64,000 bases of DNA, taken from assembly GCA_019322805.1 (NCBI GenBank), contig JAHWIC010000001.1:67347-131346 (forward strand). The letters are read 5' to 3'. Below the pieces are notes generated by a model. It did no database searches. It saw only the letters and a list, made by a program, of their open reading frames with translations, and had not been told where the DNA came from. Positions 3,712-62,228 of this stretch are shown piece after piece. Within the stretch, counting starts at the first letter, position 1. Each line of letters opens with the position of its first letter. The position numbers were made by a program, and so were the translations under genes. The stretch comes from Candidatus Woesearchaeota archaeon. Its GTDB lineage: Archaea; Nanobdellota; Nanobdellia; Woesearchaeales; JAHWIC01.

Positions 3712-4556
3712 GTAAACTGGCAGGCGAGTTAGTTGAATTAATAAAACAAACATCAACAAGCTTGCCATCTGATGTTACTAAGTCTATAAGGTCTGCTAAA
3801 AATAAAGAGAAAAAGGGTTCTATTCCATCCTACATTCTGGACACGATTATAAAGAATATCAACCTGGCAAAGAAAGAATCGTTGCCAATATGCCAGGATA
3901 CTGGAACCCTTAATTTTTATGTTTATTACAACAAAAAGCATGACCAAAAGAAGATAAGGGATTCAATAATAAAAGCAGTTAAGCTCGCAACAAAAAAATA
4001 TTACCTAAGGCCAAATGCTGTTAATTCAATAACTAGCCATAATTCAGGCAATAATATTGGAATAAATATGCCTTCTATCAAGTTTGATGAATGGGATAAG
4101 AGCTATTTAAGGATTGATTTAATGCTTAAGGGTGGTGGTTCTGAGAATGTAAGCGCACAATACAAGCTGCCTGACACCAGGCTAAAAGCAAGCCGCGACT
4201 TTGATGGAATTAAGAAATGTGTTGTCGATGCTGTAAAAAGTGCTGGTGGAAAAGGTTGTGCTCCTGGTATAATAGGTATCTGCATTGGTGGTGACAGGGC
4301 TTATGGTTACGAGCATGCTAAGAAACAGTTATTTAGAAAACTGAATGATAAAAACAAGAATCCTAAACTGGCAAAGCTGGAAAAAGAACTCAGTAATGGA
4401 TTAAACAAACTAAATATTGGTCCTATGGGTCTTGGTGGAAAAACAACTGTATTAGGTGTAAAGATAGGCTCTTTGCATAGACATCCTGCTTGCTTTTTTG
4501 TTTCAATCGCTTATATGTGCTGGGCTTGTAGAAGGAGAAGTTTAATAATTAAGTAA
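3708..4556 (+). CDS. Fe-S hydro-lyase (class I fumarate hydratase / L(+)-tartrate dehydratase) alpha subunit
   Basis: 282 aa. The ICQDTGT motif and overall length are typical of FumA/TtdA alpha subunits. Confidence 0.8.
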   Translation: MSKLAGELVELIKQTSTSLPSDVTKSIRSAKNKEKKGSIPSYILDTIIKNINLAKKESLPICQDTGTLNFYVYYNKKHDQKKIRDSIIKAVKLATKKYYLRPNAVNSITSHNSGNNIGINMPSIKFDEWDKSYLRIDLMLKGGGSENVSAQYKLPDTRLKASRDFDGIKKCVVDAVKSAGGKGCAPGIIGICIGGDRAYGYEHAKKQLFRKLNDKNKNPKLAKLEKELSNGLNKLNIGPMGLGGKTTVLGVKIGSLHRHPACFFVSIAYMCWACRRRSLIIK

Positions 4557-4566
4557 TACATACAAT

Positions 4567-5115
4567 GTGTGTATCACAAAAATGGCAGTAAAACTAACAT
4601 TTCCAATCGAAAAAGAAGAAATAAGAAAGTTAAAGGTAGGAGACATAGTTTCCTTATCAGGAATAATTTATACTGCAAGAGATGCTGCACATAAGTATTT
4701 CTTTGAGAAAAAGCCAAAAGAATTCGTCAATAAATTAGCTGATTCTGCTATATACCATTGCGGACCGATTGTAAAGAAGAAAGGTAAGAAATATTCAATA
4801 GTTTCAGCAGGACCAACAACATCTATAAGAGAAGAGCCATACGAATGGAAGATAATAAGGGCTTACAAAGTCAGAGCAATCATTGGAAAAGGAGGTATGG
4901 GTATGAAAACGCAAGAAGCTTGTAAGAAATATGGCTGTATTTATCTTTCTGCAGTCGGTGGTGCAGCTGCTCTTTTGGCAAAAACAATAAAAAATGTAAT
5001 GAATGTTTACAAACTTGAATTTGGTATGCCAGAAGCTATATGGGAGTTGGATGTTAAGGATTTCCCTGCTATAGTTACAATGGACAGTAAAGGAAGGAGC
5101 TTACATAAAGAATGA
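4567..5115 (+). CDS. Fe-S hydro-lyase (class I fumarate hydratase / tartrate dehydratase) beta subunit
   Basis: About 180 aa, immediately downstream of the alpha subunit. GKGGMG...[11 protein letters not shown] is typical of the beta subunit. Confidence 0.75.
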
Positions 5116-6041
5116 AAAGAAAAAAGATAACTATTGTAGGTTCAGGAAATGTAGGGGCAACTGTTGCTCATTTGACTGCTTTGAAATGTCTTGGTAATGT
5201 TGTCTTAGTTGATATTATAGAAGGAGTACCTCAAGGAAAGGCTCTTGACATGTATGAGTCAAGCCCTATTGAGGGTTTTGATGGAGATGTAATTGGAACA
5301 AACAATTATGAAGACACAAAAGGCTCTGACATTGTTGTTATCACAGCAGGCATAGCGAGAAAACCTGGAATGAGCCGCGATGATTTATTGAAAACAAACA
5401 CAAAGATCATGAAGTCTGTTACTGAACAAGCAGCAAAATATTCTCCAAACGCTATACTCATCGTTGTCACAAATCCATTAGATGCTATGGTCTGGGTTGC
5501 TGCAGAGGTGAGCAAATTTCCTAAAAATAGGATAATAGGAATGGCTGGTGTCTTAGACTCAGCAAGGTTTAGGAGTTTTATTGCAAGAGAGATTAAGGTT
5601 TCTCCAAAAAAGGTAGAAGCTCTTGTCCTTGGTGGCCACGGTGATTCAATGGTCCCTCTGCCAGAATACTCGACTGTAGATGGAAGACCAATAACGGAAT
5701 TAATGAGCAAGGAAAAGGTAGAAGCGCTTGTTGAGCGTACAAGAAATGGCGGCGCAGAAATAGTTAGCTTGTTAAAGACAGGAAGTGCTTATTACGCCCC
5801 TGCTTCAGCTGTTGTTGAGATGATTGAAGCAATCCTAAAAGATAAAAAGAAGATTCTGCCATGCGCTGCATGGCTTGATGGCCATTATGATGTAAAAGGT
5901 TATTTCCTAGGTGTTCCTGTTAAACTAGGAAAGGATGGTGTTGAGGAAATAGTTGAACTTAACCTTGATAACCAAGAAAAGGAAGCATTTAAAAAGACAG
6001 TTAACCATGTAAAGGAACTGGTATCCAAGATAGAACTGTAA
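5112..6041 (+). CDS. mdh: Malate dehydrogenase (LDH/MDH family)
   Basis: 309 aa. The N-terminal [15 protein letters not shown] Rossmann motif and the LDH/MDH substrate-loop region are present. Confidence 0.85.
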
Positions 6042-6054
6042 AAAAGAGGTTGAG

Positions 6055-7302
6055 ATGGTTGAAACAGATTCTTTTAAGATGATACAGTCTTACGTGGAGA
6101 AAGCTGTAAAAATACTAAAACTAAACGGAAAGGTTCTTTCAATTCTAAGCAAACCTATGCTTGAAAAACACGTCTCAATACCTGTAAGGATGGATGATGG
6201 CAAAACAAAGGTTTTCAAAGGCTTTAGAGTCCAGTATAATAATGCGCATGGTCCAACTAAAGGTGGAATAAGATTTCATCCCAACGAAACAATAGACTCT
6301 ATGAGGGCATTAGCAGCCTGGATGACATGGAAATGTGCTGTTGTTGATATTCCTTTTGGTGGCTCAAAGGGCGGTGTAATTTGCAATCCAAAGAAACTTT
6401 CAAAAGGCGAATTGGAGAGATTAAGCAGAGGATATATAAGGGCAATTGCAGGATTCATAGGTCCCAAGATAGATATACCTGCTCCTGATGTTTACACAAA
6501 CCAGCAGATAATGGCATGGATGTATGATGAATACAGCAAAATAGTCGGCTATAATGAGCCAGCTGCCATAACAGGCAAGCCAATTGACCTTGGCGGCTCT
6601 TTAGGAAGAGAAGATGCTACCGCAAGAGGTGGTTTAATTGTTTTGGAAGAAGCTGCAAAACACCTTGATATTAATTTAGGCAATGCTAGTGTTGCTATCC
6701 ATGGTTTTGGGAATGTTGGTTATAATACTGCTGTTTTATTTAGGAGATTATTTGGAGGAAATATCTGCGCAGTATCTGACTCAAGAGGAGGTATTTTTAA
6801 TAAAAAGGGCTTAGATCCAGAAGCTGTTTTAAGGCATAAGCAAAGAACAAGCTCTGTTGTTGGCTTTCCAGGAGCTAAAAAAATAAGTAATGAGGCTCTG
6901 CTGACCTCAGATGTTGATGTGCTTATTCCAGCTGCAATAGAAAATGTAGTAACAAGAAAAAACGCAAAAAATATCAAAGCAAGCATTATAACAGAGCTTG
7001 CAAATGGGCCTACAACACCAGAAGCTGATAAGGTCCTTCACAAAAAGGATGTTTTTATTATACCTGACTTTTTATCTAATGCAGGCGGGGTGACTGTTTC
7101 TTATTTTGAATGGATTCAAGGCCTTACAAGAGAAAGATGGACAGAAGAAAAGGTACATATAGAATTACAAAAAAGGATGAAGGATGCTTTTAATGATGTC
7201 CTTAAAGCCTCACTAAAATATAAGGTTGATATGAGAACAGCTGCTTATATTGTTGCTATAGGGCATATTGCAGAAGTAATGAAGCTAAGAGGATGGTACT
7301 AA
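6055..7302 (+). CDS. gdhA: Glutamate dehydrogenase
   Basis: 415 aa. Conserved GDH motifs are present: GPTKGGIRFHP, DIPFGGSKGG and GFGNVG. Confidence 0.85.
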   Translation: MVETDSFKMIQSYVEKAVKILKLNGKVLSILSKPMLEKHVSIPVRMDDGKTKVFKGFRVQYNNAHGPTKGGIRFHPNETIDSMRALAAWMTWKCAVVDIPFGGSKGGVICNPKKLSKGELERLSRGYIRAIAGFIGPKIDIPAPDVYTNQQIMAWMYDEYSKIVGYNEPAAITGKPIDLGGSLGREDATARGGLIVLEEAAKHLDINLGNASVAIHGFGNVGYNTAVLFRRLFGGNICAVSDSRGGIFNKKGLDPEAVLRHKQRTSSVVGFPGAKKISNEALLTSDVDVLIPAAIENVVTRKNAKNIKASIITELANGPTTPEADKVLHKKDVFIIPDFLSNAGGVTVSYFEWIQGLTRERWTEEKVHIELQKRMKDAFNDVLKASLKYKVDMRTAAYIVAIGHIAEVMKLRGWY

Positions 7303-10392: not shown

Positions 10393-10480
10393 AGCTTTAA
10401 GGATTAAAGTCAGTCTTTTAAATATTTGTATTTAAAAGTGTCATAGAATGGGATCAATAGAAAGAATTCAATAAAAAATA

Positions 10481-10596
10481 ATTCTGAAAATTCCTCTTAG
10501 AACTACTGTAAAGGAATTTTCATCTACTTCTAGTTCTTAAGAAACAGAATAAGACGATTTTTGCTTTATAGTAGACTTAAGGCAAAAATCAGATTT
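10481..10596 (+). repeat. Copy A of a four-member intergenic double-hairpin element family (TCTGAAAATTCC...GGAATTTTCATC ... GATTTTTGC...GGCAAAAATCAGATT)
   Basis: Direct alignment with the copies at 40756, 53037 and 61964. The shared terminal and internal inverted motifs are present. Confidence 0.6.
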
Positions 10597-10670
10597 ATTA
10601 TTTTTCTAATTATATTTTTTATTGATTAAAAACAAAAACTTAATAAAAAAGCAAAATATAGTGAAAAACC

Positions 10671-10973
10671 ATGACCCTTATATACATAACCTGCAAAGAC
10701 AAGGCAGAAGCCAAAAAGATAGCAAGCTACCTTCTAAAGAAGAAATTAATTGCATGCGCTAATTTCTTTCCTATAAACAGCATGTATTGGTGGAAAAATA
10801 AGATAGTTGATGATAAAGAGTTCTTATTATTAGCAAAAACAGCAAAAAAGAACTGCAGCAAGGTAAGAAAAGAAGTCAAAAAGCTGCACAGCTATGAGAT
10901 ACCATGCATTCTAGAGATTGATGTTGATGGAAACAAAGAATTTATAGATTGGGTAGATAGAGTTACTATGTGA
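10671..10973 (+). CDS. cutA: Divalent-cation tolerance protein CutA
   Basis: 100 aa. The CutA1 fold signature is present (KLIACANFFPINSMYWWKNKIV...HSYEIPCILE). Confidence 0.8.
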   Translation: MTLIYITCKDKAEAKKIASYLLKKKLIACANFFPINSMYWWKNKIVDDKEFLLLAKTAKKNCSKVRKEVKKLHSYEIPCILEIDVDGNKEFIDWVDRVTM

Positions 10974-40429: not shown

Positions 40430-40430
40430 A

Positions 40431-40522
40431 AGCCCCGAGGGAGAGTTGCACTCCCGACCTTCGCTTTTCCTTTAATATAAATCAATACGAGAGCGACGCA
40501 CTAGCTACTGTGCTACCGGGGC
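40431..40522 (-). tRNA. tRNA-Thr (anticodon CGU) with a roughly 19-nt intron at canonical position 37/38
   Basis: Manual fold on the minus strand. The acceptor stem is GCCCCGG/TCGGGGC, the D-arm is GCAC-AGTAGCTA-GTGC, the anticodon stem is TCGCT/AGCGA with loop CTCGTA|intron|A, and the T-stem is GGGAG/CTCCC. The T-loop TGCAACT is atypical. Confidence 0.55.
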
Positions 40523-40527
40523 AGAAT

Positions 40528-40689
40528 TTATTTGAGTTGTTTTAGTAAATCTTCTTTCTTTGGAAGCTTCTTCTGGCATTCAGGGCAGACTAGATATTTC
40601 TTATTGCTTCCTGGTTTTTTTATGTAAGTACCTACGACCTTCTTCAGGAATGTCTCTTCAATCTTCTTTTTACAAATCTCGCATTTCAT
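40528..40689 (-). CDS. Small zinc-ribbon protein (53 aa; CxxC...CxxC), not in the ORF track
   Basis: MKCEICKKKIEETFLKKVVGTYIKKPGSNKKYLVCPECQKKLPKKEDLLKQLK has two CxxC pairs. Confidence 0.45.
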   Translation of the reverse strand: MKCEICKKKIEETFLKKVVGTYIKKPGSNKKYLVCPECQKKLPKKEDLLKQLK

Positions 40690-40755
40690 AAAAGAATATA
40701 ATCAAGGCTGGTTTATAAATATTTAGAATTTGGTAATTGAATAATAAAAATAATT

Positions 40756-40885
40756 AATCTGAAAATTCCTTTCAACCGCATGTAATCTGAATTTTCATCC
40801 ACATAATTCCCTTTTAGCTAGAGTATAAAGGAACAACAGCGGATGATTTTTGCCTTAGCCAAAGGAATAAAGCAAAAATCAGATT
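40756..40885 (+). repeat. Copy B of the intergenic double-hairpin element family
   Basis: It begins AATCTGAAAATTCC, continues through TGAATTTTCATCC and CCCTTTTAGCTAGAGTATAAAGGAA, then GGATGATTTTTGCC, and ends AGCAAAAATCAGATT. It is followed by an A/T-rich TTTTATTGATT flank. Confidence 0.6.
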
Positions 40886-40973
40886 GATTTTTATTTTTTA
40901 TTGATTATTTTTTATTGATTTTAGACTCAATAAACAATAATATTTATTAATCGAGGAATAAAACCAAGTAACT

Positions 40974-42731
40974 ATGACCAGAATAGCTGTTATTGAGAAG
41001 GAGAAGTGCAACCCTCATGGCTGCGGTAATTACCTTTGCATTAGGCTGTGCCCCATTAACAGGACAGGCCAAGAATGCATTGTTGAGGGTGAAGATAAAA
41101 AGCCTAAGATAGATGAAACTCTATGCACTGGCTGCGGAATATGCCAGAACAGGTGTCCTTTTGAAGCTATTTCAATCATAAATCTTCCTGAAGAGCTTAC
41201 TAAGGATCCAATACATCAATACGGCAAAAATGGTTTTCACCTATGGAACCTGCCAACACCCATCTTTGGAAAGGTTGTTGGTTTAGTTGGAAGGAATGGC
41301 ATTGGTAAGTCAACTGCCATTAAGATTCTAGCAAGCATTCTAAAGCCAAATCTTGGAAAAGAGGAAGGAGAAGCAGGTTATGATGGCTTAATTGAATACT
41401 TTAAAGGAACTGAAGCACAATTATTCTTTGAAAAATTAAAAAATGAAGAAATTAGGGTAAGCTTTAAGCCACAGCAGGTTGATCTTATACCAAAAGCTGA
41501 GAAGGGAAAGGTAAGAAAGCTTTTGGAAAAGGTTGATGAAAAGAAAGAGCTTGATAAGACCGCAAAACTACTTGGGATTGACAAAATACTTGATAATGAC
41601 ATAAAAAAGATCTCTGGTGGTGAATTGCAAAGAGTTGCAATTGCTGCAACTGTTTTGAAAAAAGCAAATCTGTATATCTTTGACGAGCCAACTTCTTACC
41701 TTGATATCAAACAGAGATTAAAGATAAGCAAATTCATACGCAGCTTAGCTGATGAAAATACAGCAGTTTTAGTGGTTGAGCATGACCTGATAATTCTTGA
41801 TTATATGACTGATATGGTTCATCTGATGTATGGTAAGCCGTCTGTCTACGGTATTGTCAGCTTGCCAAAGACAACCAAAGCTGGAATTAATGTTTATTTA
41901 TCAGGTTTTATAAGAGAAGAAAACATCAGGTTTAGGGATTATGCTATAAAATTTGAGGAAAGGCCTCCAATAAAGGCAAAAGAAGCAGTATCAATCACTT
42001 CATGGAATGGTGTTGAAAAGAAATTAGGCAAATTCAATCTTAAAGCTGATGAAGGTGGTGTGCAGAGAAAGGATATTGTTGGTGTTCTAGGAGAGAATGG
42101 AATTGGTAAAACCAGTTTTGTTAAGATTTTGGCAGAAGAAATAAAGCCGGATAAAGGAGGGATTACAAAAAAAGTAAAGGTTTCTTACAAACCACAATAC
42201 CTTGAAGCAACTTCTGATGAATTGGTTGCTACTGTTTTGAAAGATGCTATTAGTACATATTCTAACCAGATAATAAATCCTTTAGAAATCAAACCATTAT
42301 TAACGAGAAAGGTAAATGAGCTTAGTGGCGGTGAATTGCAGCGTGTTTCAATTGCACTTGCCTTATCGCAACAAGCTGATCTGTTTTTGTTAGATGAACC
42401 ATCTGCTTACCTTGATATTGAACAGAGGCTTATTGTTTCAAAGGTCATAAGAAACCTAATGGAGGAAAAAGGAAAATCAGCTTTAGTTGTTGATCACGAT
42501 TTATTATTCCTTGATTATCTTTCCAAGAAATTAATGGTTTTTGAAGGCGAGCCAGCTGTGCATGGTGAAGCAAAAGGTCCGTTTGCAATGGAAGAAGGAA
42601 TGACTATGTTTTTGAAGGATCTCAATATTACTTTCAGGCGTGATGAAGAGAATAAAAGGCCAAGAGCAAATAAACCTGATTCTGTCAAGGATAGGGAGCA
42701 GAAAAAGAAAGGTAAATACTATTATTCTTAG
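40974..42731 (+). CDS. abce1: Ribosome-recycling ATPase ABCE1 (RNase L inhibitor homolog)
   Basis: 585 aa. The N-terminal 2x[4Fe-4S] domain (CNPHGCGNYLCIRLCP...CTGCGICQNRCP) is followed by twin ABC cassettes. Confidence 0.9.
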   Translation: MTRIAVIEKEKCNPHGCGNYLCIRLCPINRTGQECIVEGEDKKPKIDETLCTGCGICQNRCPFEAISIINLPEELTKDPIHQYGKNGFHLWNLPTPIFGKVVGLVGRNGIGKSTAIKILASILKPNLGKEEGEAGYDGLIEYFKGTEAQLFFEKLKNEEIRVSFKPQQVDLIPKAEKGKVRKLLEKVDEKKELDKTAKLLGIDKILDNDIKKISGGELQRVAIAATVLKKANLYIFDEPTSYLDIKQRLKISKFIRSLADENTAVLVVEHDLIILDYMTDMVHLMYGKPSVYGIVSLPKTTKAGINVYLSGFIREENIRFRDYAIKFEERPPIKAKEAVSITSWNGVEKKLGKFNLKADEGGVQRKDIVGVLGENGIGKTSFVKILAEEIKPDKGGITKKVKVSYKPQYLEATSDELVATVLKDAISTYSNQIINPLEIKPLLTRKVNELSGGELQRVSIALALSQQADLFLLDEPSAYLDIEQRLIVSKVIRNLMEEKGKSALVVDHDLLFLDYLSKKLMVFEGEPAVHGEAKGPFAMEEGMTMFLKDLNITFRRDEENKRPRANKPDSVKDREQKKKGKYYYS

Positions 42732-50261: not shown

Positions 50262-50993
50262 TTAGGGTTTTGGTGAAGGTTTTTTAAGTATTTCGTCTTT
50301 TATCTGGCTTTCATCTATCTTTAAGCCAAGTTTTCTGAAAAATGTTGAAATGTTCTTTATGTCACGATCTAGATATTCTTCTGCATATGGATTTTTTAAT
50401 GTTGTACATTGTGAAAAATCTATGAAAACTGGTTTTTCATTAAAGTTAAGGATATTAAAAGCTGATAAATCAGCATGGACTAAGCCGGCGTTATGCAGCT
50501 TTTTCATTTGGGATATTATATCTGCCAAGAATTTCTTTGGATTTTTTGGTTCTTTGTCTTTCAGCCTTGGAGCAATCTCACCGCCAGAACCAATAAATTC
50601 CAAAACAAGGACATTATTTAAGAAAGCTATTGGTGTCGGAACACGGATGTTTGCTTCCCTGGCTTTAAGCAGGTTTCTATACTCACGCTGAGTCCATGCA
50701 AAGATGACTTTGCGTTTCTTTGCTTTCAATGATAAAAACCTAGGATCAACTTTAAGATAATCATACATTCTGTTAAAGTCGCATGTTTCCAAGCGGTAGA
50801 TCTTAACCATAACCCTGCCTGTTTTTGTTTTTGCGGAAAATATATTTGCTTCTTTGCCGATTGATATTGGGCTTTCCAAGCCTTCAAAGTAACCCCTGGT
50901 TATTAATCTATATAATGTGCGGTTTGTAAATTCATCAAATACGCTGTGCATTACCTTGAATTTATCTTTTGGTTTTCTTGGATATTTAGGCAT
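50262..50993 (-). CDS. RIO-type serine/threonine kinase (Rio1-like)
   Basis: 243 aa. The motif ISIGKEANIF and the catalytic LVHADLSAFNIL are present, and there is no Rio2 winged-helix N-terminal domain. Confidence 0.8.
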   Translation of the reverse strand: MPKYPRKPKDKFKVMHSVFDEFTNRTLYRLITRGYFEGLESPISIGKEANIFSAKTKTGRVMVKIYRLETCDFNRMYDYLKVDPRFLSLKAKKRKVIFAWTQREYRNLLKAREANIRVPTPIAFLNNVLVLEFIGSGGEIAPRLKDKEPKNPKKFLADIISQMKKLHNAGLVHADLSAFNILNFNEKPVFIDFSQCTTLKNPYAEEYLDRDIKNISTFFRKLGLKIDESQIKDEILKKPSPKP

Positions 50994-51149
50994 ACAAAAA
51001 AAATAAGAAACAGGGGTATATAAAGGTTTATTATTTACTGCTGATACTACTTTAAAATAGTATCAAAACCGAAACATTTAAATATAAGTTCTACTTTATA
51101 ATAGTAACACGAAAGGGTGGTGAGATTTACGCCTTTTTTTCAATATTGA

Positions 51150-51310
51150 ACCATAACAAGGTTTTACAATCAAGCTAAACACCTCTTTTCCCCGTTAATG
51201 CCCCACAAGGGCGTTTTCGGGGTTTTACAATCAAAATAAGCTCATAATCACCTCTTTTTCCCTGGTGAGGGTTTCGCAAGAGACTCTCGCTGGGGTTTTA
51301 TAATCACTAA
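51150..51310 (+). repeat. About 70-bp degenerate tandem repeat (x2.5) with units ending GGGGTTTTA(C/T)AATCA(A/C), each containing GC-rich hairpins
   Basis: Read directly. GGTTTTACAATCAA starts at about 51151 and 51223, and GGTTTTATAATCAC at about 51293. CACCTCTTTT(T)CCC recurs at 51179 and 51249. Confidence 0.4.
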
Positions 51311-51730
51311 TTATAATCAATAGGTTATTCTCTATAAAATAGCCACAAAACCAAATGTTTTTATACTTGGATACCCTAATGATATTGTTATGCATTGATT
51401 GCGTAACGAAGCCCGTCACGAGAGTACTCAATGGAGCTGACGGCAATGCCAAGCAATGAGCTTGGGGGTTAGTGTTTCGGGCTACAATCCATTAAATGAC
51501 GATTAAAACATAAATAGAGCAAGCATTAAGCGTTTCATCATTATTATTCATTGATTTGACCTTTAAATTGGAAACAAAAAGCAATTTGACCTATGTTGGT
51601 CAAAAAAGCTAAATAGATTTAGGAGCTTGTTCTATTTGTGATGTGGGGAGAAGCTAATGATCATCAATTCATTTATTGTAGTGAGATGTAGTTCAGCTTC
51701 TTCTTAGACTAATGTTCCGGAGGGATTAAA

Positions 51731-55739: not shown

Positions 55740-57080
55740 GTGTATATGGCTTATGATATTGTTATTGGAAGGAGTGAAGCTGATAGAAAGAAGATTGGAA
55801 CTCTTGGGGCAATCTTTCTTGGCAAACATTATGTACAGATGGGGCAGACTGTTAGTTTATCAAGTAAGATATTTATGGACCTAACTGGAAGCCATGCTGT
55901 CTTTCTTTGCGGCAAAAGAGGTTCCGGCAAGTCATACACAATGGGGGTCATAGCAGAAGGAATGGCTGATTTGCCTTCTGAGATTAAGAATAATATCTCT
56001 GTTATAATGCTTGACACAATGGGCATTTACTGGACAATGAAGTATCCTAACCAGAAGCCTAAGGAGCAGGAATTGTTAAGGCAGTGGGGTCTTGAGTCAA
56101 AAGGGCTTAATATTACGATTTTTACGCCCAAAGGTTATTTCAAGGCTTACAAAGACAAGGGAATTCCCACAGATTTTCCATTCTCAATTAAAACAAGTGA
56201 GCTTGATGTAAGTGACTGGTGTATTACTTTTGGAACCAAGCAAAACGAGCCAATGGGTGTGTTAATCGAAAGAACTATTGAAACCCTGAAGGAACAAGGA
56301 AAGAGCTATGGAATTAAGGATATGATCGCTACTTTGCATAAGGATGAGCGCACAAAGCAGGAGGTTAAGGATGCTTTGGAGAACAGACTGCTTGGCGCTG
56401 ATAAATGGGGTTTATTTGATAAAGAAGGTACACCTCTTAATGATTTAGTTATTGGCGGACAAGTTACTGTTTTGGATGTAAGCTGCTATGCTACAATGCC
56501 TGGCGCTGGAAATTTAAGGGCCTTGGTTATTGGCCTTGTAGCAGAGAAACTGTTTATACAGAGGATGTTAGCAAGAAAAGAGGAGGAATTTGCCTCAGTC
56601 GAGAGGACAATACATTATGCTGAAGAAGAGGAAGAAGGCAAAGAAAAAAAGAAAGAGCCTCTTGTTTGGCTTGTTGTAGATGAAGCTCATGAGTTTCTGC
56701 CGCGTGAAGGGGAGACAGCTGCTTCAAGACCCTTGATTATTATCCTAAGAGAAGGCAGACAGCCTGGAATTTCGTTGATTCTAGCAACACAACAGCCGGG
56801 TAAAATCCATACTGATGTTATGACACAATCGGATATAATGATATCACATAGACTAACAGCCCAGGTTGATGTAGAAGCCCTAGGAATGTTGATGCAGAGT
56901 TATATGCGTGGTGGTTTGGACAAAGAGATTAATGCGTTGCCAAGATTAAAGGGCTCTGCCTTGATATTTGATGATAATAATGAAAAATTATATCCGATGA
57001 GAGTTCGTCCTAGATTTACATGGCACGGCGGTGAGTCAGCTTCTGCATTAGTAGAGAAAAAGAAGGTCTTTGAGTTCTAA
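55740..57080 (+). CDS. P-loop ATPase of the HerA/FtsK (DUF87/AAA-like) superfamily
   Basis: 446 aa. Walker A (GKRGSGKS), Walker B (LVVDEAHEF) and the C-terminal motif ILATQQPGKI are present. Confidence 0.6.
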   Translation: MYMAYDIVIGRSEADRKKIGTLGAIFLGKHYVQMGQTVSLSSKIFMDLTGSHAVFLCGKRGSGKSYTMGVIAEGMADLPSEIKNNISVIMLDTMGIYWTMKYPNQKPKEQELLRQWGLESKGLNITIFTPKGYFKAYKDKGIPTDFPFSIKTSELDVSDWCITFGTKQNEPMGVLIERTIETLKEQGKSYGIKDMIATLHKDERTKQEVKDALENRLLGADKWGLFDKEGTPLNDLVIGGQVTVLDVSCYATMPGAGNLRALVIGLVAEKLFIQRMLARKEEEFASVERTIHYAEEEEEGKEKKKEPLVWLVVDEAHEFLPREGETAASRPLIIILREGRQPGISLILATQQPGKIHTDVMTQSDIMISHRLTAQVDVEALGMLMQSYMRGGLDKEINALPRLKGSALIFDDNNEKLYPMRVRPRFTWHGGESASALVEKKKVFEF

Positions 57081-61790: not shown

Positions 61791-61963
61791 TTTATTATCA
61801 ATTTATTTTATCACTAGGTTTATGATACGCATGCACAATTAGTTGTGCATTTGCTTGTTTTTATTACCTTAAATCATCATTTAATAACAATTATTCAACG
61901 AAAAATGCTGACGCATTTTTCTAGTGTAGTAAATTATTTTATAATTTATACACAATCCGAAAA

Positions 61964-62150
61964 TTCCTTTCACAACCAAGTTAAAGGTTATAGTAAGCGA
62001 AATTATATAAGCAATAGTTTCGCTTACTAAATAGTAAACGCAATCTTTCATAAAATAGTTGCGTTTACTAAATTTTCATCCGCTTTCTTTCCTTTAGCAA
62101 TGACTGTGGATGATTTTTGCCTTAACGTGGGTATCAAGCAAAAATCAGAT
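61964..62150 (+). repeat. Copy D of the intergenic double-hairpin element family, carrying a roughly 75-bp insertion of two perfect hairpins; it sits between trpC and rpe
   Basis: It begins AATCCGAAAATTCC. The insertion holds TAGTAAGCGAAA/TTTCGCTTACTA at 61991-62029 and AGTAAACGCAA/TTGCGTTTACT at 62033-62069. It continues through AATTTTCATCC and GGATGATTTTTGCC and ends AGCAAAAATCAGATT. Confidence 0.6.
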
Positions 62151-62228
62151 TGTTGCCGAGTGAAACGAGCGCAACTAAGGAATCTCTGATTCCTGTTTAT
62201 TTTTCTTCTATTGATCCTTTTTTATTGA

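Follow-up and report, generated by a model that had tools for sequence, protein, structure and literature searches.

A candidate cluster of structured RNA elements in the intergenic gap upstream of dnaG in Woesearchaeota

What occupies the long intergenic gap between the divergent RIO kinase and dnaG genes (Table 1) of this Candidatus Woesearchaeota contig? The gap, which a first-pass annotation of the sequence had noted as the longest non-coding stretch of the window (the whole 64-kb stretch of DNA analysed here), measures 737 bp (50994–51730), with runners-up of 581 and 544 bp by a crude ATG-only gene call. On its left, the genes for topoisomerase VI A and B, a KH protein and the RIO kinase form a minus-strand run up to 50993. 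On its right lies the gene for DnaG, which is a primase and also a subunit of the archaeal exosome. The best explanation overall is that the gap probably holds a compact plus-strand cluster of transcribed structured RNA elements, with putative biochemical roles. As read from the sequences, a promoter block (P) is followed by a putative small RNA (A), whose unit consists of single-stranded AUCACCUCUUUUU, a stable hairpin and a U tract; tandem duplication of this unit in the window lineage evidently produced the "70-bp repeats". A second predicted promoter leads into B, a 76-nt kink-turn rod, and on through hairpins C and D to dnaG.

Table 1. Coordinates of the gap elements and of the genes that border them (window numbering)
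Feature	Position	Strand	Description
RIO kinase	ATG at 50993	minus	left border of gap
TATA box of leaderless RIO kinase gene	51015..51030	minus	AAACCTTTATATA ~30 nt before ATG; from sequence reading
Promoter block P of RNA A	51044..51112	plus	box 1 51047-51065, BRE/TATA 51070-51085, box 2 51091-51109
5' segment of RNA A, decayed third module	51111..51172	plus	ends GGUUUUACAAUCA; TGGTGAGATTTACGC resembles 5' arm of module 2
Module 1 ("type 1")	51174..51233	plus	AAACACCUCUUUU, hairpin 51190-51222, U tract; model R2 39.5 bits
Module 2 ("type 2")	51243..51306	plus	AUCACCUCUUUUU 51247-51259, 16-bp GCAA-loop hairpin 51260-51295, UUUU; model R2 75.6 bits
TATA box of B transcript	51358..51365	plus	window lineage: 45 nt before GCCCG, hairpin P0 between
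Hairpin P0	51387..51407	plus	GUUAUGCA-UUGAU-UGCGUAAC; predicted fold
RNA B, 76-nt rod	51411..51486	plus	P1, P1b, loop, P2, kink-turn, P3, P4, 3' ACA 51484-86
Element C	51509..51640	plus	long-range helix AUAGAGCAAGC with GCUUGUUCUAU; encloses G-free UUCAUCAUUAUUAUUCAUU and apex hairpin 51585-51604
Element D	51645..51707	plus	purine-rich Shine-Dalgarno-like 5' arm 51645-55 pairs with CU-rich 3' arm 51695-51704
Upstream ORF in D	51657-51707	plus	16 codons, MIINSFIVVRCSSASS
dnaG Shine-Dalgarno GGAGGG and start codon	51719..51733	plus	sequence reading
Archaeal DnaG	from 51731	plus	right border of gap

The repeats are as the annotation described them, 2.5 tandem units of about 70 bp, which are two modules and a decayed third: GGTTTTAYAATCA is present in three exact copies (51160, 51221, 51294) and nowhere else in the window, and TAAnCACCTCTTTT(T)CCC occurs twice. 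Tandem Repeats Finder did not report the array (51150–51310) because the copies are too diverged. GC-rich stem-loops had also been proposed within the repeats, and 51140–51320 indeed contains two GC hairpins and folds with z = -6.4 versus shuffled sequence; the GC-rich segment farther downstream, folded on its own, is unexceptional (z = -0.2). The short minus-strand ORF in this region (51231–51452, 73 aa) was rightly suspected to be spurious, because it is broken in L083, L085, L087 and L059. A CRISPR array was considered and rejected: the spacings are 61 and 73 nt, there are indels inside the "repeat", and conservation falls on the flanks of covarying hairpins. A dispersed repeat was also rejected, the modules and B being found at one locus per genome stretch. 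Elsewhere in the window, gaps longer than 500 bp lie at 10393–10973 and 40430–40973 (crude ATG-only gene call), where Rfam is empty at the gathering threshold, and a 41-bp tandem repeat (2 copies, 80% match) occupies 61990–62073 inside a 438-bp gap (61791–62228). The genes at 40974–42731, a homologue of the ribosome-recycling ATPase ABCE1/RLI, and at 55746–57080, a HerA-like (DUF87) ATPase, are ordinary.

No known RNA family accounts for these elements. Rfam 15 gave 0 matches in the window at the gathering threshold, so that none of the RNase P, SRP, C/D or riboswitch families raised in the annotation was matched, and a search at E values up to 10 returned nothing on A or B. No Rfam C/D family rose above noise (best E 3.6 and 6, outside A and B), and the B kink-turn has AAUGAG and UGGAGC as its strands, versus the terminal C (RUGAUGA) and D (CUGA) boxes of a C/D box sRNA, which also has C' and D' boxes. 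A tRNA scan found none in the window, and Rfam and tRNA scans of 14 related loci yielded just two tRNAs, elsewhere in those loci; a search for rRNA genes found none in any of the loci collected. Literature searches recovered no description of gap RNAs A, B, C or D.

Conservation of the gap was assessed in 86 related loci; 80 GTDB species representatives and 5 closer relatives were fetched through DnaG. Three blocks were recovered by blastn in most of the 86: P (51044–51109), module 2 (51245–51305) and the GC-rich segment (51409–51489), the last at 80–96% identity across relatives. DnaG itself is only 65–76% identical in most relatives, despite the conserved gap blocks. The RNA elements are kept in ~80 Woesearchaeota/Nanoarchaeota genomes, where P and the modules travel together adjoining the divergent RIO gene, and the GC-rich block sits 150–350 nt upstream of dnaG. 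The P-A unit is inverted in two genomes, and in several others unrelated genes of 100–320 aa are inserted between the P/module group and the GC-rich block (L030 1766–2641, L041 2036–2590, L047 2063–2649, L064 1696–2661, L067 2261–2668, L012 2267–2572). The 3' side of A may be an insertion hot spot, or the inserted ORFs may use read-through from the A promoter. The annotation's proposal of a non-coding RNA locus is borne out by the retention of three blocks in ~80 genomes, by covariation, by G.U pairs on the plus strand only, and by the elements' own BRE/TATA promoters. One contig, L002, has a DnaG identical to that of the window, and its DNA is identical from ~51265 rightwards through dnaG; left of this point (L002:~455) to the contig end it is only ~80% identical. 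This switch inside module 2 looks like a recombination breakpoint between strains, judging from the two sequences.

RNA B lies within the GC-rich segment (51408–51495) that the annotation had read as a structured small RNA with nested stems. The segment is real and highly conserved, but its conserved fold does not contain the proposed stems (GTCA/TGAC and CCAAGC/GCTTGG): most relatives have GCAAGC or UCAAGC in place of CCAAGC, and the pairing that is conserved joins distant bases. An alignment of 67 distinct sequences (96 columns) has P1 as GCCCGU/ACGGGC, with a sixth pair that varies among U-A, C-G, A-U and G-C, P1b as CAC/GUG, and P2 in variants such as CUCAA/UUGGG, CCAAA/UUUGG and CCCAUGG/CCUGGG; P4 is variable, with 45-nt insertions in four genomes. 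The invariant internal loop reads GAGAGUA (51420–26) on the 5' side and GGUUA (51467–71) on the 3' side, the latter (A/G)GUUA across the family. Beyond it, 5' ..GA-GCU opposes AGC-AAU-GA.. (GA 51434–35; bulge AAU 51455–57; GA 51458–59), a combination of GA/GA with a 3-nt bulge that fits the kink-turn rule, and the C-stem of the kink-turn covaries. Under this fold, 89% of cells are paired, versus 31–38% in slid controls, and in 12 pairs both bases change. In shuffles, the observed values were unreached on four of five measures, the fifth (further pair types) being reached in 51/500, and RNAalifold independently recovered stems P1, P1b, P2 and P4. Model R1 scored B at 102.8 bits, its only match above noise in the window (next 12.7 bits, E 0.42), and found exactly one copy in 81 of the 86 loci, always upstream of dnaG and in the same orientation. 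Of the five loci with no R1 match, four (L004, L036, L046, L048) have too little or no upstream DNA. Among 100 unrelated metagenome loci, R1 found no B copy except at the orthologous locus L146. In L024, L033, L066 and others, an AAACAnnTTTATATA box stands ~30 nt before GCCCG, and where there is an extra hairpin P0 the BRE/TATA box precedes that hairpin by about this distance. An expanded P0 of ~70 nt, with its own kink-turn-like GA/GA motif and an ..ACA end, is found in ~16 other lineages.

The modelled architecture of B appears H/ACA-like, and the RNA would be expected to bind L7Ae at its kink-turn. It may be released from the dnaG leader as a pseudouridylation guide of H/ACA type, or serve that leader as a protein-binding 5' domain. 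It is possible, if on balance unlikely, that B is a genuine single-hairpin H/ACA guide (double-hairpin with the expanded P0) directing Cbf5 to a conserved rRNA or tRNA uridine. The dimensions of its lower part agree with the rule for archaeal guides of a lower helix of >=7 bp and a loop of 5–11 nt per strand (PMC2377435): P1 has 6 bp and P1b 3 bp with a 2-nt bulge, the loop strands are 7 and 5 nt, and an upper stem leads to the kink-turn. The invariant loop is what would be expected of a guide to a conserved target, and ACA is found in ~50 of the 67 sequences (~75%), GCA, UCA or CCA taking its place in the remaining quarter, which speaks against a guide. The distances fit less well. From pocket to G.A pairs there are 5 Watson-Crick and 2 non-canonical layers, or 7 versus the rule of 5–6 bp, and 6 only if the invariant C26-G69 is counted in the pocket; ACA lies 17 nt from the pocket top (15 without the bulge), versus 14–15 nt for ANA. 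Both the 7-layer and the 17-nt distance are non-functional in Pyrococcus (PMC2377435), but sR-h45 of H. volcanii is functional with its ACA at 17 nt, and ACA is not always required (PMC7075261). Two further observations count against a guide: B is fused to the dnaG leader in every genome, and the predicted target, 5'-UAACY-U-N-UACUCUC-3', is absent from the window and from the 16S, 23S and 5S rRNA and three tRNAs of E. coli. Helix H69 and other rRNA targets, sought in E. coli rRNA, gave no match. Mimicry of 16S 1399–1407 (GCCCGUCAC) by B was not significant by shuffling, and a 12-nt complement of B to E. coli 23S 713–724, made up of stem bases and variable columns, was judged to be chance.

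Between B and dnaG lie two further conserved structures. The C helix, 10–35 nt after B, joins (AGCAUU)AGAACAAGC to GCUUGUUCU(AAAUGC) across the family; minimum-energy folding pairs its arms in 67 of 77 sequences, and compensatory variants are found in L007, L020, L028, L038, L039 and L069. The 5' arm drifts by A-to-G changes that retain G.U pairs, and the enclosed G-free stretch is UCAU-rich. The palindrome at 51585–51604 pointed out in the annotation exists, as the apex hairpin of this longer RNA helix, and shows compensatory substitutions in relatives. In 35 of 38 sequences, D pairs its Shine-Dalgarno-like arm (GAGGAAGCU or AGAAGGAG) with its CU-rich arm (AGCUUCUUCU or CUCCUUCU); covariation is seen in the inner helix. 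Roughly 30 of these 38 carry an upstream ORF of 11–19 codons that begins MFI(N) or MII and stops at the 3' arm; in one clade this ORF has no AUG. The window's dnaG leader folds with z = -4.3, and the GGAGG of dnaG is the only one before any gene start in the window (crude ATG-only gene call). There is no room for a promoter between B and C; the simplest reading is accordingly a single transcript that runs from B through C and D to dnaG. D could control dnaG translation by masking or unmasking the Shine-Dalgarno-like and CU-rich arms around the short upstream ORF.

The upstream half of the cluster begins with P, which is ~80% identical across 39 loci with the consensus ACYACTnTAAAATRGT .. CGAAAGATTTATATA .. 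GTTCTAYTATAnARTAGTAACA. Boxes 1 and 2 are direct repeats of a 16-nt box, set 44 nt apart and flanking the BRE/TATA. Box 1 was also considered as an RNA hairpin, which was rejected, and since its Y/R positions do not covary, the boxes are DNA motifs. Promoter spacing and U tracts place the probable ends of the gap RNAs, with transcription of RNA A inferred to start near 51108–51112, at AACA. In L060, L073 and L079 the 5' segment of RNA A varies or is missing, and the RNA begins 0–10 nt before the motif, so the segment is dispensable. The TATA box stands at a constant distance. In the window, A extends from P to ~51306. Its U tracts are short (3–4 U), and A may therefore be read through.

Many relatives have a single module, whereas the window lineage has type 1, type 2 and the decayed upstream copy. 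All 59 distinct modules (59/59) fold as AUCACCUCUUUUU (or AAACACCUCUUUU) followed by a 12–16 bp hairpin with a GCAA or UUCG loop and then UUU. Pairing holds in 97.4% of cells across 36 type-2 modules, and at 9 of 14 pairs both bases change. G.U pairs are common, and only the plus strand has them; the opposite strand would carry A.C mismatches at these places. In the module 1 hairpin, the window and L002 differ at two pairs, C-G to U-A in one and G.U to A-U in the other. Model R2 finds only modules 1 and 2 in the 64 kb, and a terminator scan also picks up module 2. A minus-strand reading of the modules (GAGGUGAU plus AUG) was rejected, as the ATG is not conserved and the G.U pairs are restricted to the plus strand.

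The single-stranded AUCACCUCUUUUU motif differs by one change from the 3'-tail (anti-Shine-Dalgarno) sequence of 16S rRNA. Compared with E. coli 16S 1531–1541 (AUCACCUCCUU), AUCACCUCUUU is identical at 10 of 11 positions, a match that is marginal by shuffling (p ~0.075), and, if one G.U pair is allowed, the motif could base-pair to Shine-Dalgarno sequences of the GGAGGUGAU type. Such a sequence is used by only some genes of the window, and no window mRNA has complementarity to the motif beyond that of a generic Shine-Dalgarno sequence. If A acts as a free small RNA, its exposed motif would copy the 16S rRNA 3' tail and occupy whatever binds that tail. The likeliest partners would be the Shine-Dalgarno sequences of mRNAs, making A a trans-acting translational repressor; a tail-binding KH protein is an alternative.

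A-type modules also occur beyond Woesearchaeota. An exact-motif scan was run on metagenomes and then on IMG/VR, and most of the metagenome matches are chance. About 25 metagenome loci have a TATA box, a 21–23 nt spacer, 5'-AUCACCUCUUUUUCCCCAGGAGAGGC, a longer hairpin and CCCAGGGUUU. They do not adjoin RIO, KH or dnaG, and one is Pacearchaeota- or Nanoarchaeota-like by its HisRS; adjacency to RIO/KH as a universal feature of A was rejected, as it holds in Woesearchaeota only. The IMG/VR scan returned about ten genuine modules, in head-tail viral contigs, with a TATA box, AUCACCUCUUUUUCCC, a hairpin and a U tract. The module lies 43–57 nt after the terminase large-subunit gene in L218, L220 and L237 (probably also L210), and upstream of the portal gene in L210, L218, L220, L227 and L231; two viral portal genes, which begin 62–74 nt past the motif, lack a Shine-Dalgarno sequence. 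L218 and L231 have a second element further downstream, (U)UCACCUCCCUGUGUUUUUGGG plus a hairpin, and L220 encodes at 4260–6725 a portal-MuF fusion with a C-terminal intein/Hint-like domain (Pfam Intein_splicing, Vint; weak). A speculative and rather improbable proposal is that A-type RNAs make up a family not described before, present in Woese- and Pacearchaeota-like archaea and in their head-tail viruses, with a 5' end that mimics the 16S 3' tail. They would sequester Shine-Dalgarno sequences or KH/Dim2 proteins, shifting translation away from Shine-Dalgarno-led mRNAs, and viruses would exploit their own copy before portal genes that have no Shine-Dalgarno sequence.

Alternatively, the A modules may be cis-acting transcription elements: a strong promoter would give a short RNA that terminates at the hairpin and U tract, and only with the help of a factor would polymerase read through, gating the viral portal/structural genes, variable host genes, or B-dnaG. 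We consider this unlikely, although several observations are consistent with it. The module resembles an intrinsic terminator, the viral modules head the structural gene block, and tandem modules would give stepwise attenuation. Furthermore, many host and viral loci have an ORF within 20–70 nt of the end of A and no obvious promoter between the two, which fits a cis-acting leader as well as it fits a free RNA. However, in L024, L033 and L066 the B promoter directly follows A, and A therefore stands alone there. Moreover, the 15-nt motif is invariant and the hairpin sequence is free, and a plain terminator needs no such motif. We know of no archaeal read-through factor of this kind (N- or Q-like).

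A partner in the form of a protein, as opposed to mRNA, is suggested by the neighborhood of the locus. Archaeal Dim2 and bacterial Era KH domains bind GAUCACCUCC, and Dim2/Nob1-type factors recognize the 16S 3' end. The KH protein of the window, encoded 750 bp from element A, matches Pfam KH_PNO1_2nd and KH_KRR1_2nd, and in Woesearchaeota the RIO-KH operon and A invariably point away from each other. A could therefore be a decoy that titrates or delivers this Pno1/Dim2-like protein, and possibly Nob1 too, but Pacearchaeota-like and viral members have no RIO/KH neighbor, and we regard such a decoy as improbable. That the gap is a replication origin or its remnant, with the repeats as initiator-binding sites beside an AT-rich unwinding stretch, is extremely improbable: this longest non-coding stretch adjoins a primase gene and has AT-rich parts and a palindrome, but cumulative skew has no inflection, none of 20 window proteins tested is Orc1/Cdc6 (in line with the annotation's own remark that the window lacks such a gene), the repeats are direct and form hairpins with one-strand G.U pairs instead of inverted origin-recognition boxes, the palindrome covaries as an RNA stem, and in other genomes the blocks are found apart from, or inverted with respect to, one another.

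The preferred reading, a cluster of structured RNA elements, can be set beside several known systems. The A motif shares its sequence with the 16S 3' tail (the 10/11 match above), but stands at the 5' end of a 60–90 nt RNA before a hairpin, whereas the rRNA tail is a 3' end after helix 45. In bacterial small RNAs of the RsaE/RoxS type, C/U-rich seeds mask ribosome-binding sites. Like these, A has its own promoter, a hairpin resembling a terminator, a U tail, and a short single-stranded seed rich in pyrimidines; unlike them, it is archaeal and its seed is a full anti-Shine-Dalgarno sequence, and its specificity would therefore be global. To our knowledge, no Hfq-type partner has been described for an archaeal RNA of this kind. 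The 6S leader of lambda PR' and nut boxA/boxB are antitermination sites, and A resembles them as a promoter-proximal short RNA that ends at a hairpin and U tract before viral structural genes, with a CUCUUU core followed by a hairpin; the viral A element differs in lying after terL and not before the late operon, and the boxA match is only 6 nt. B, for its part, resembles the archaeal H/ACA RNAs Pab91 and sR-h45 in hairpin size, in its lower stem, loop and upper stem, in the apical kink-turn, in GA at 24–25 of the 5' strand, and mostly in the 3' ACA (PMC2377435, PMC7075261). It departs from them in an upper stem one to two layers too long, in the 17-nt ACA distance, and in being part of an mRNA leader.

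DPANN archaea have tiny, packed genomes with almost no described regulatory RNA, and this locus provides at least two new candidate RNA families with comparative support, A and B with the dnaG leader, as candidates for RNA family databases. If the proposal for A is true, a small RNA that copies the anti-Shine-Dalgarno tail, common to cells and viruses, would represent a new route of translation control or hijack. In the dnaG leader, the conserved kink-turn RNA would tie RNA-protein machinery to control of a replication/exosome gene.
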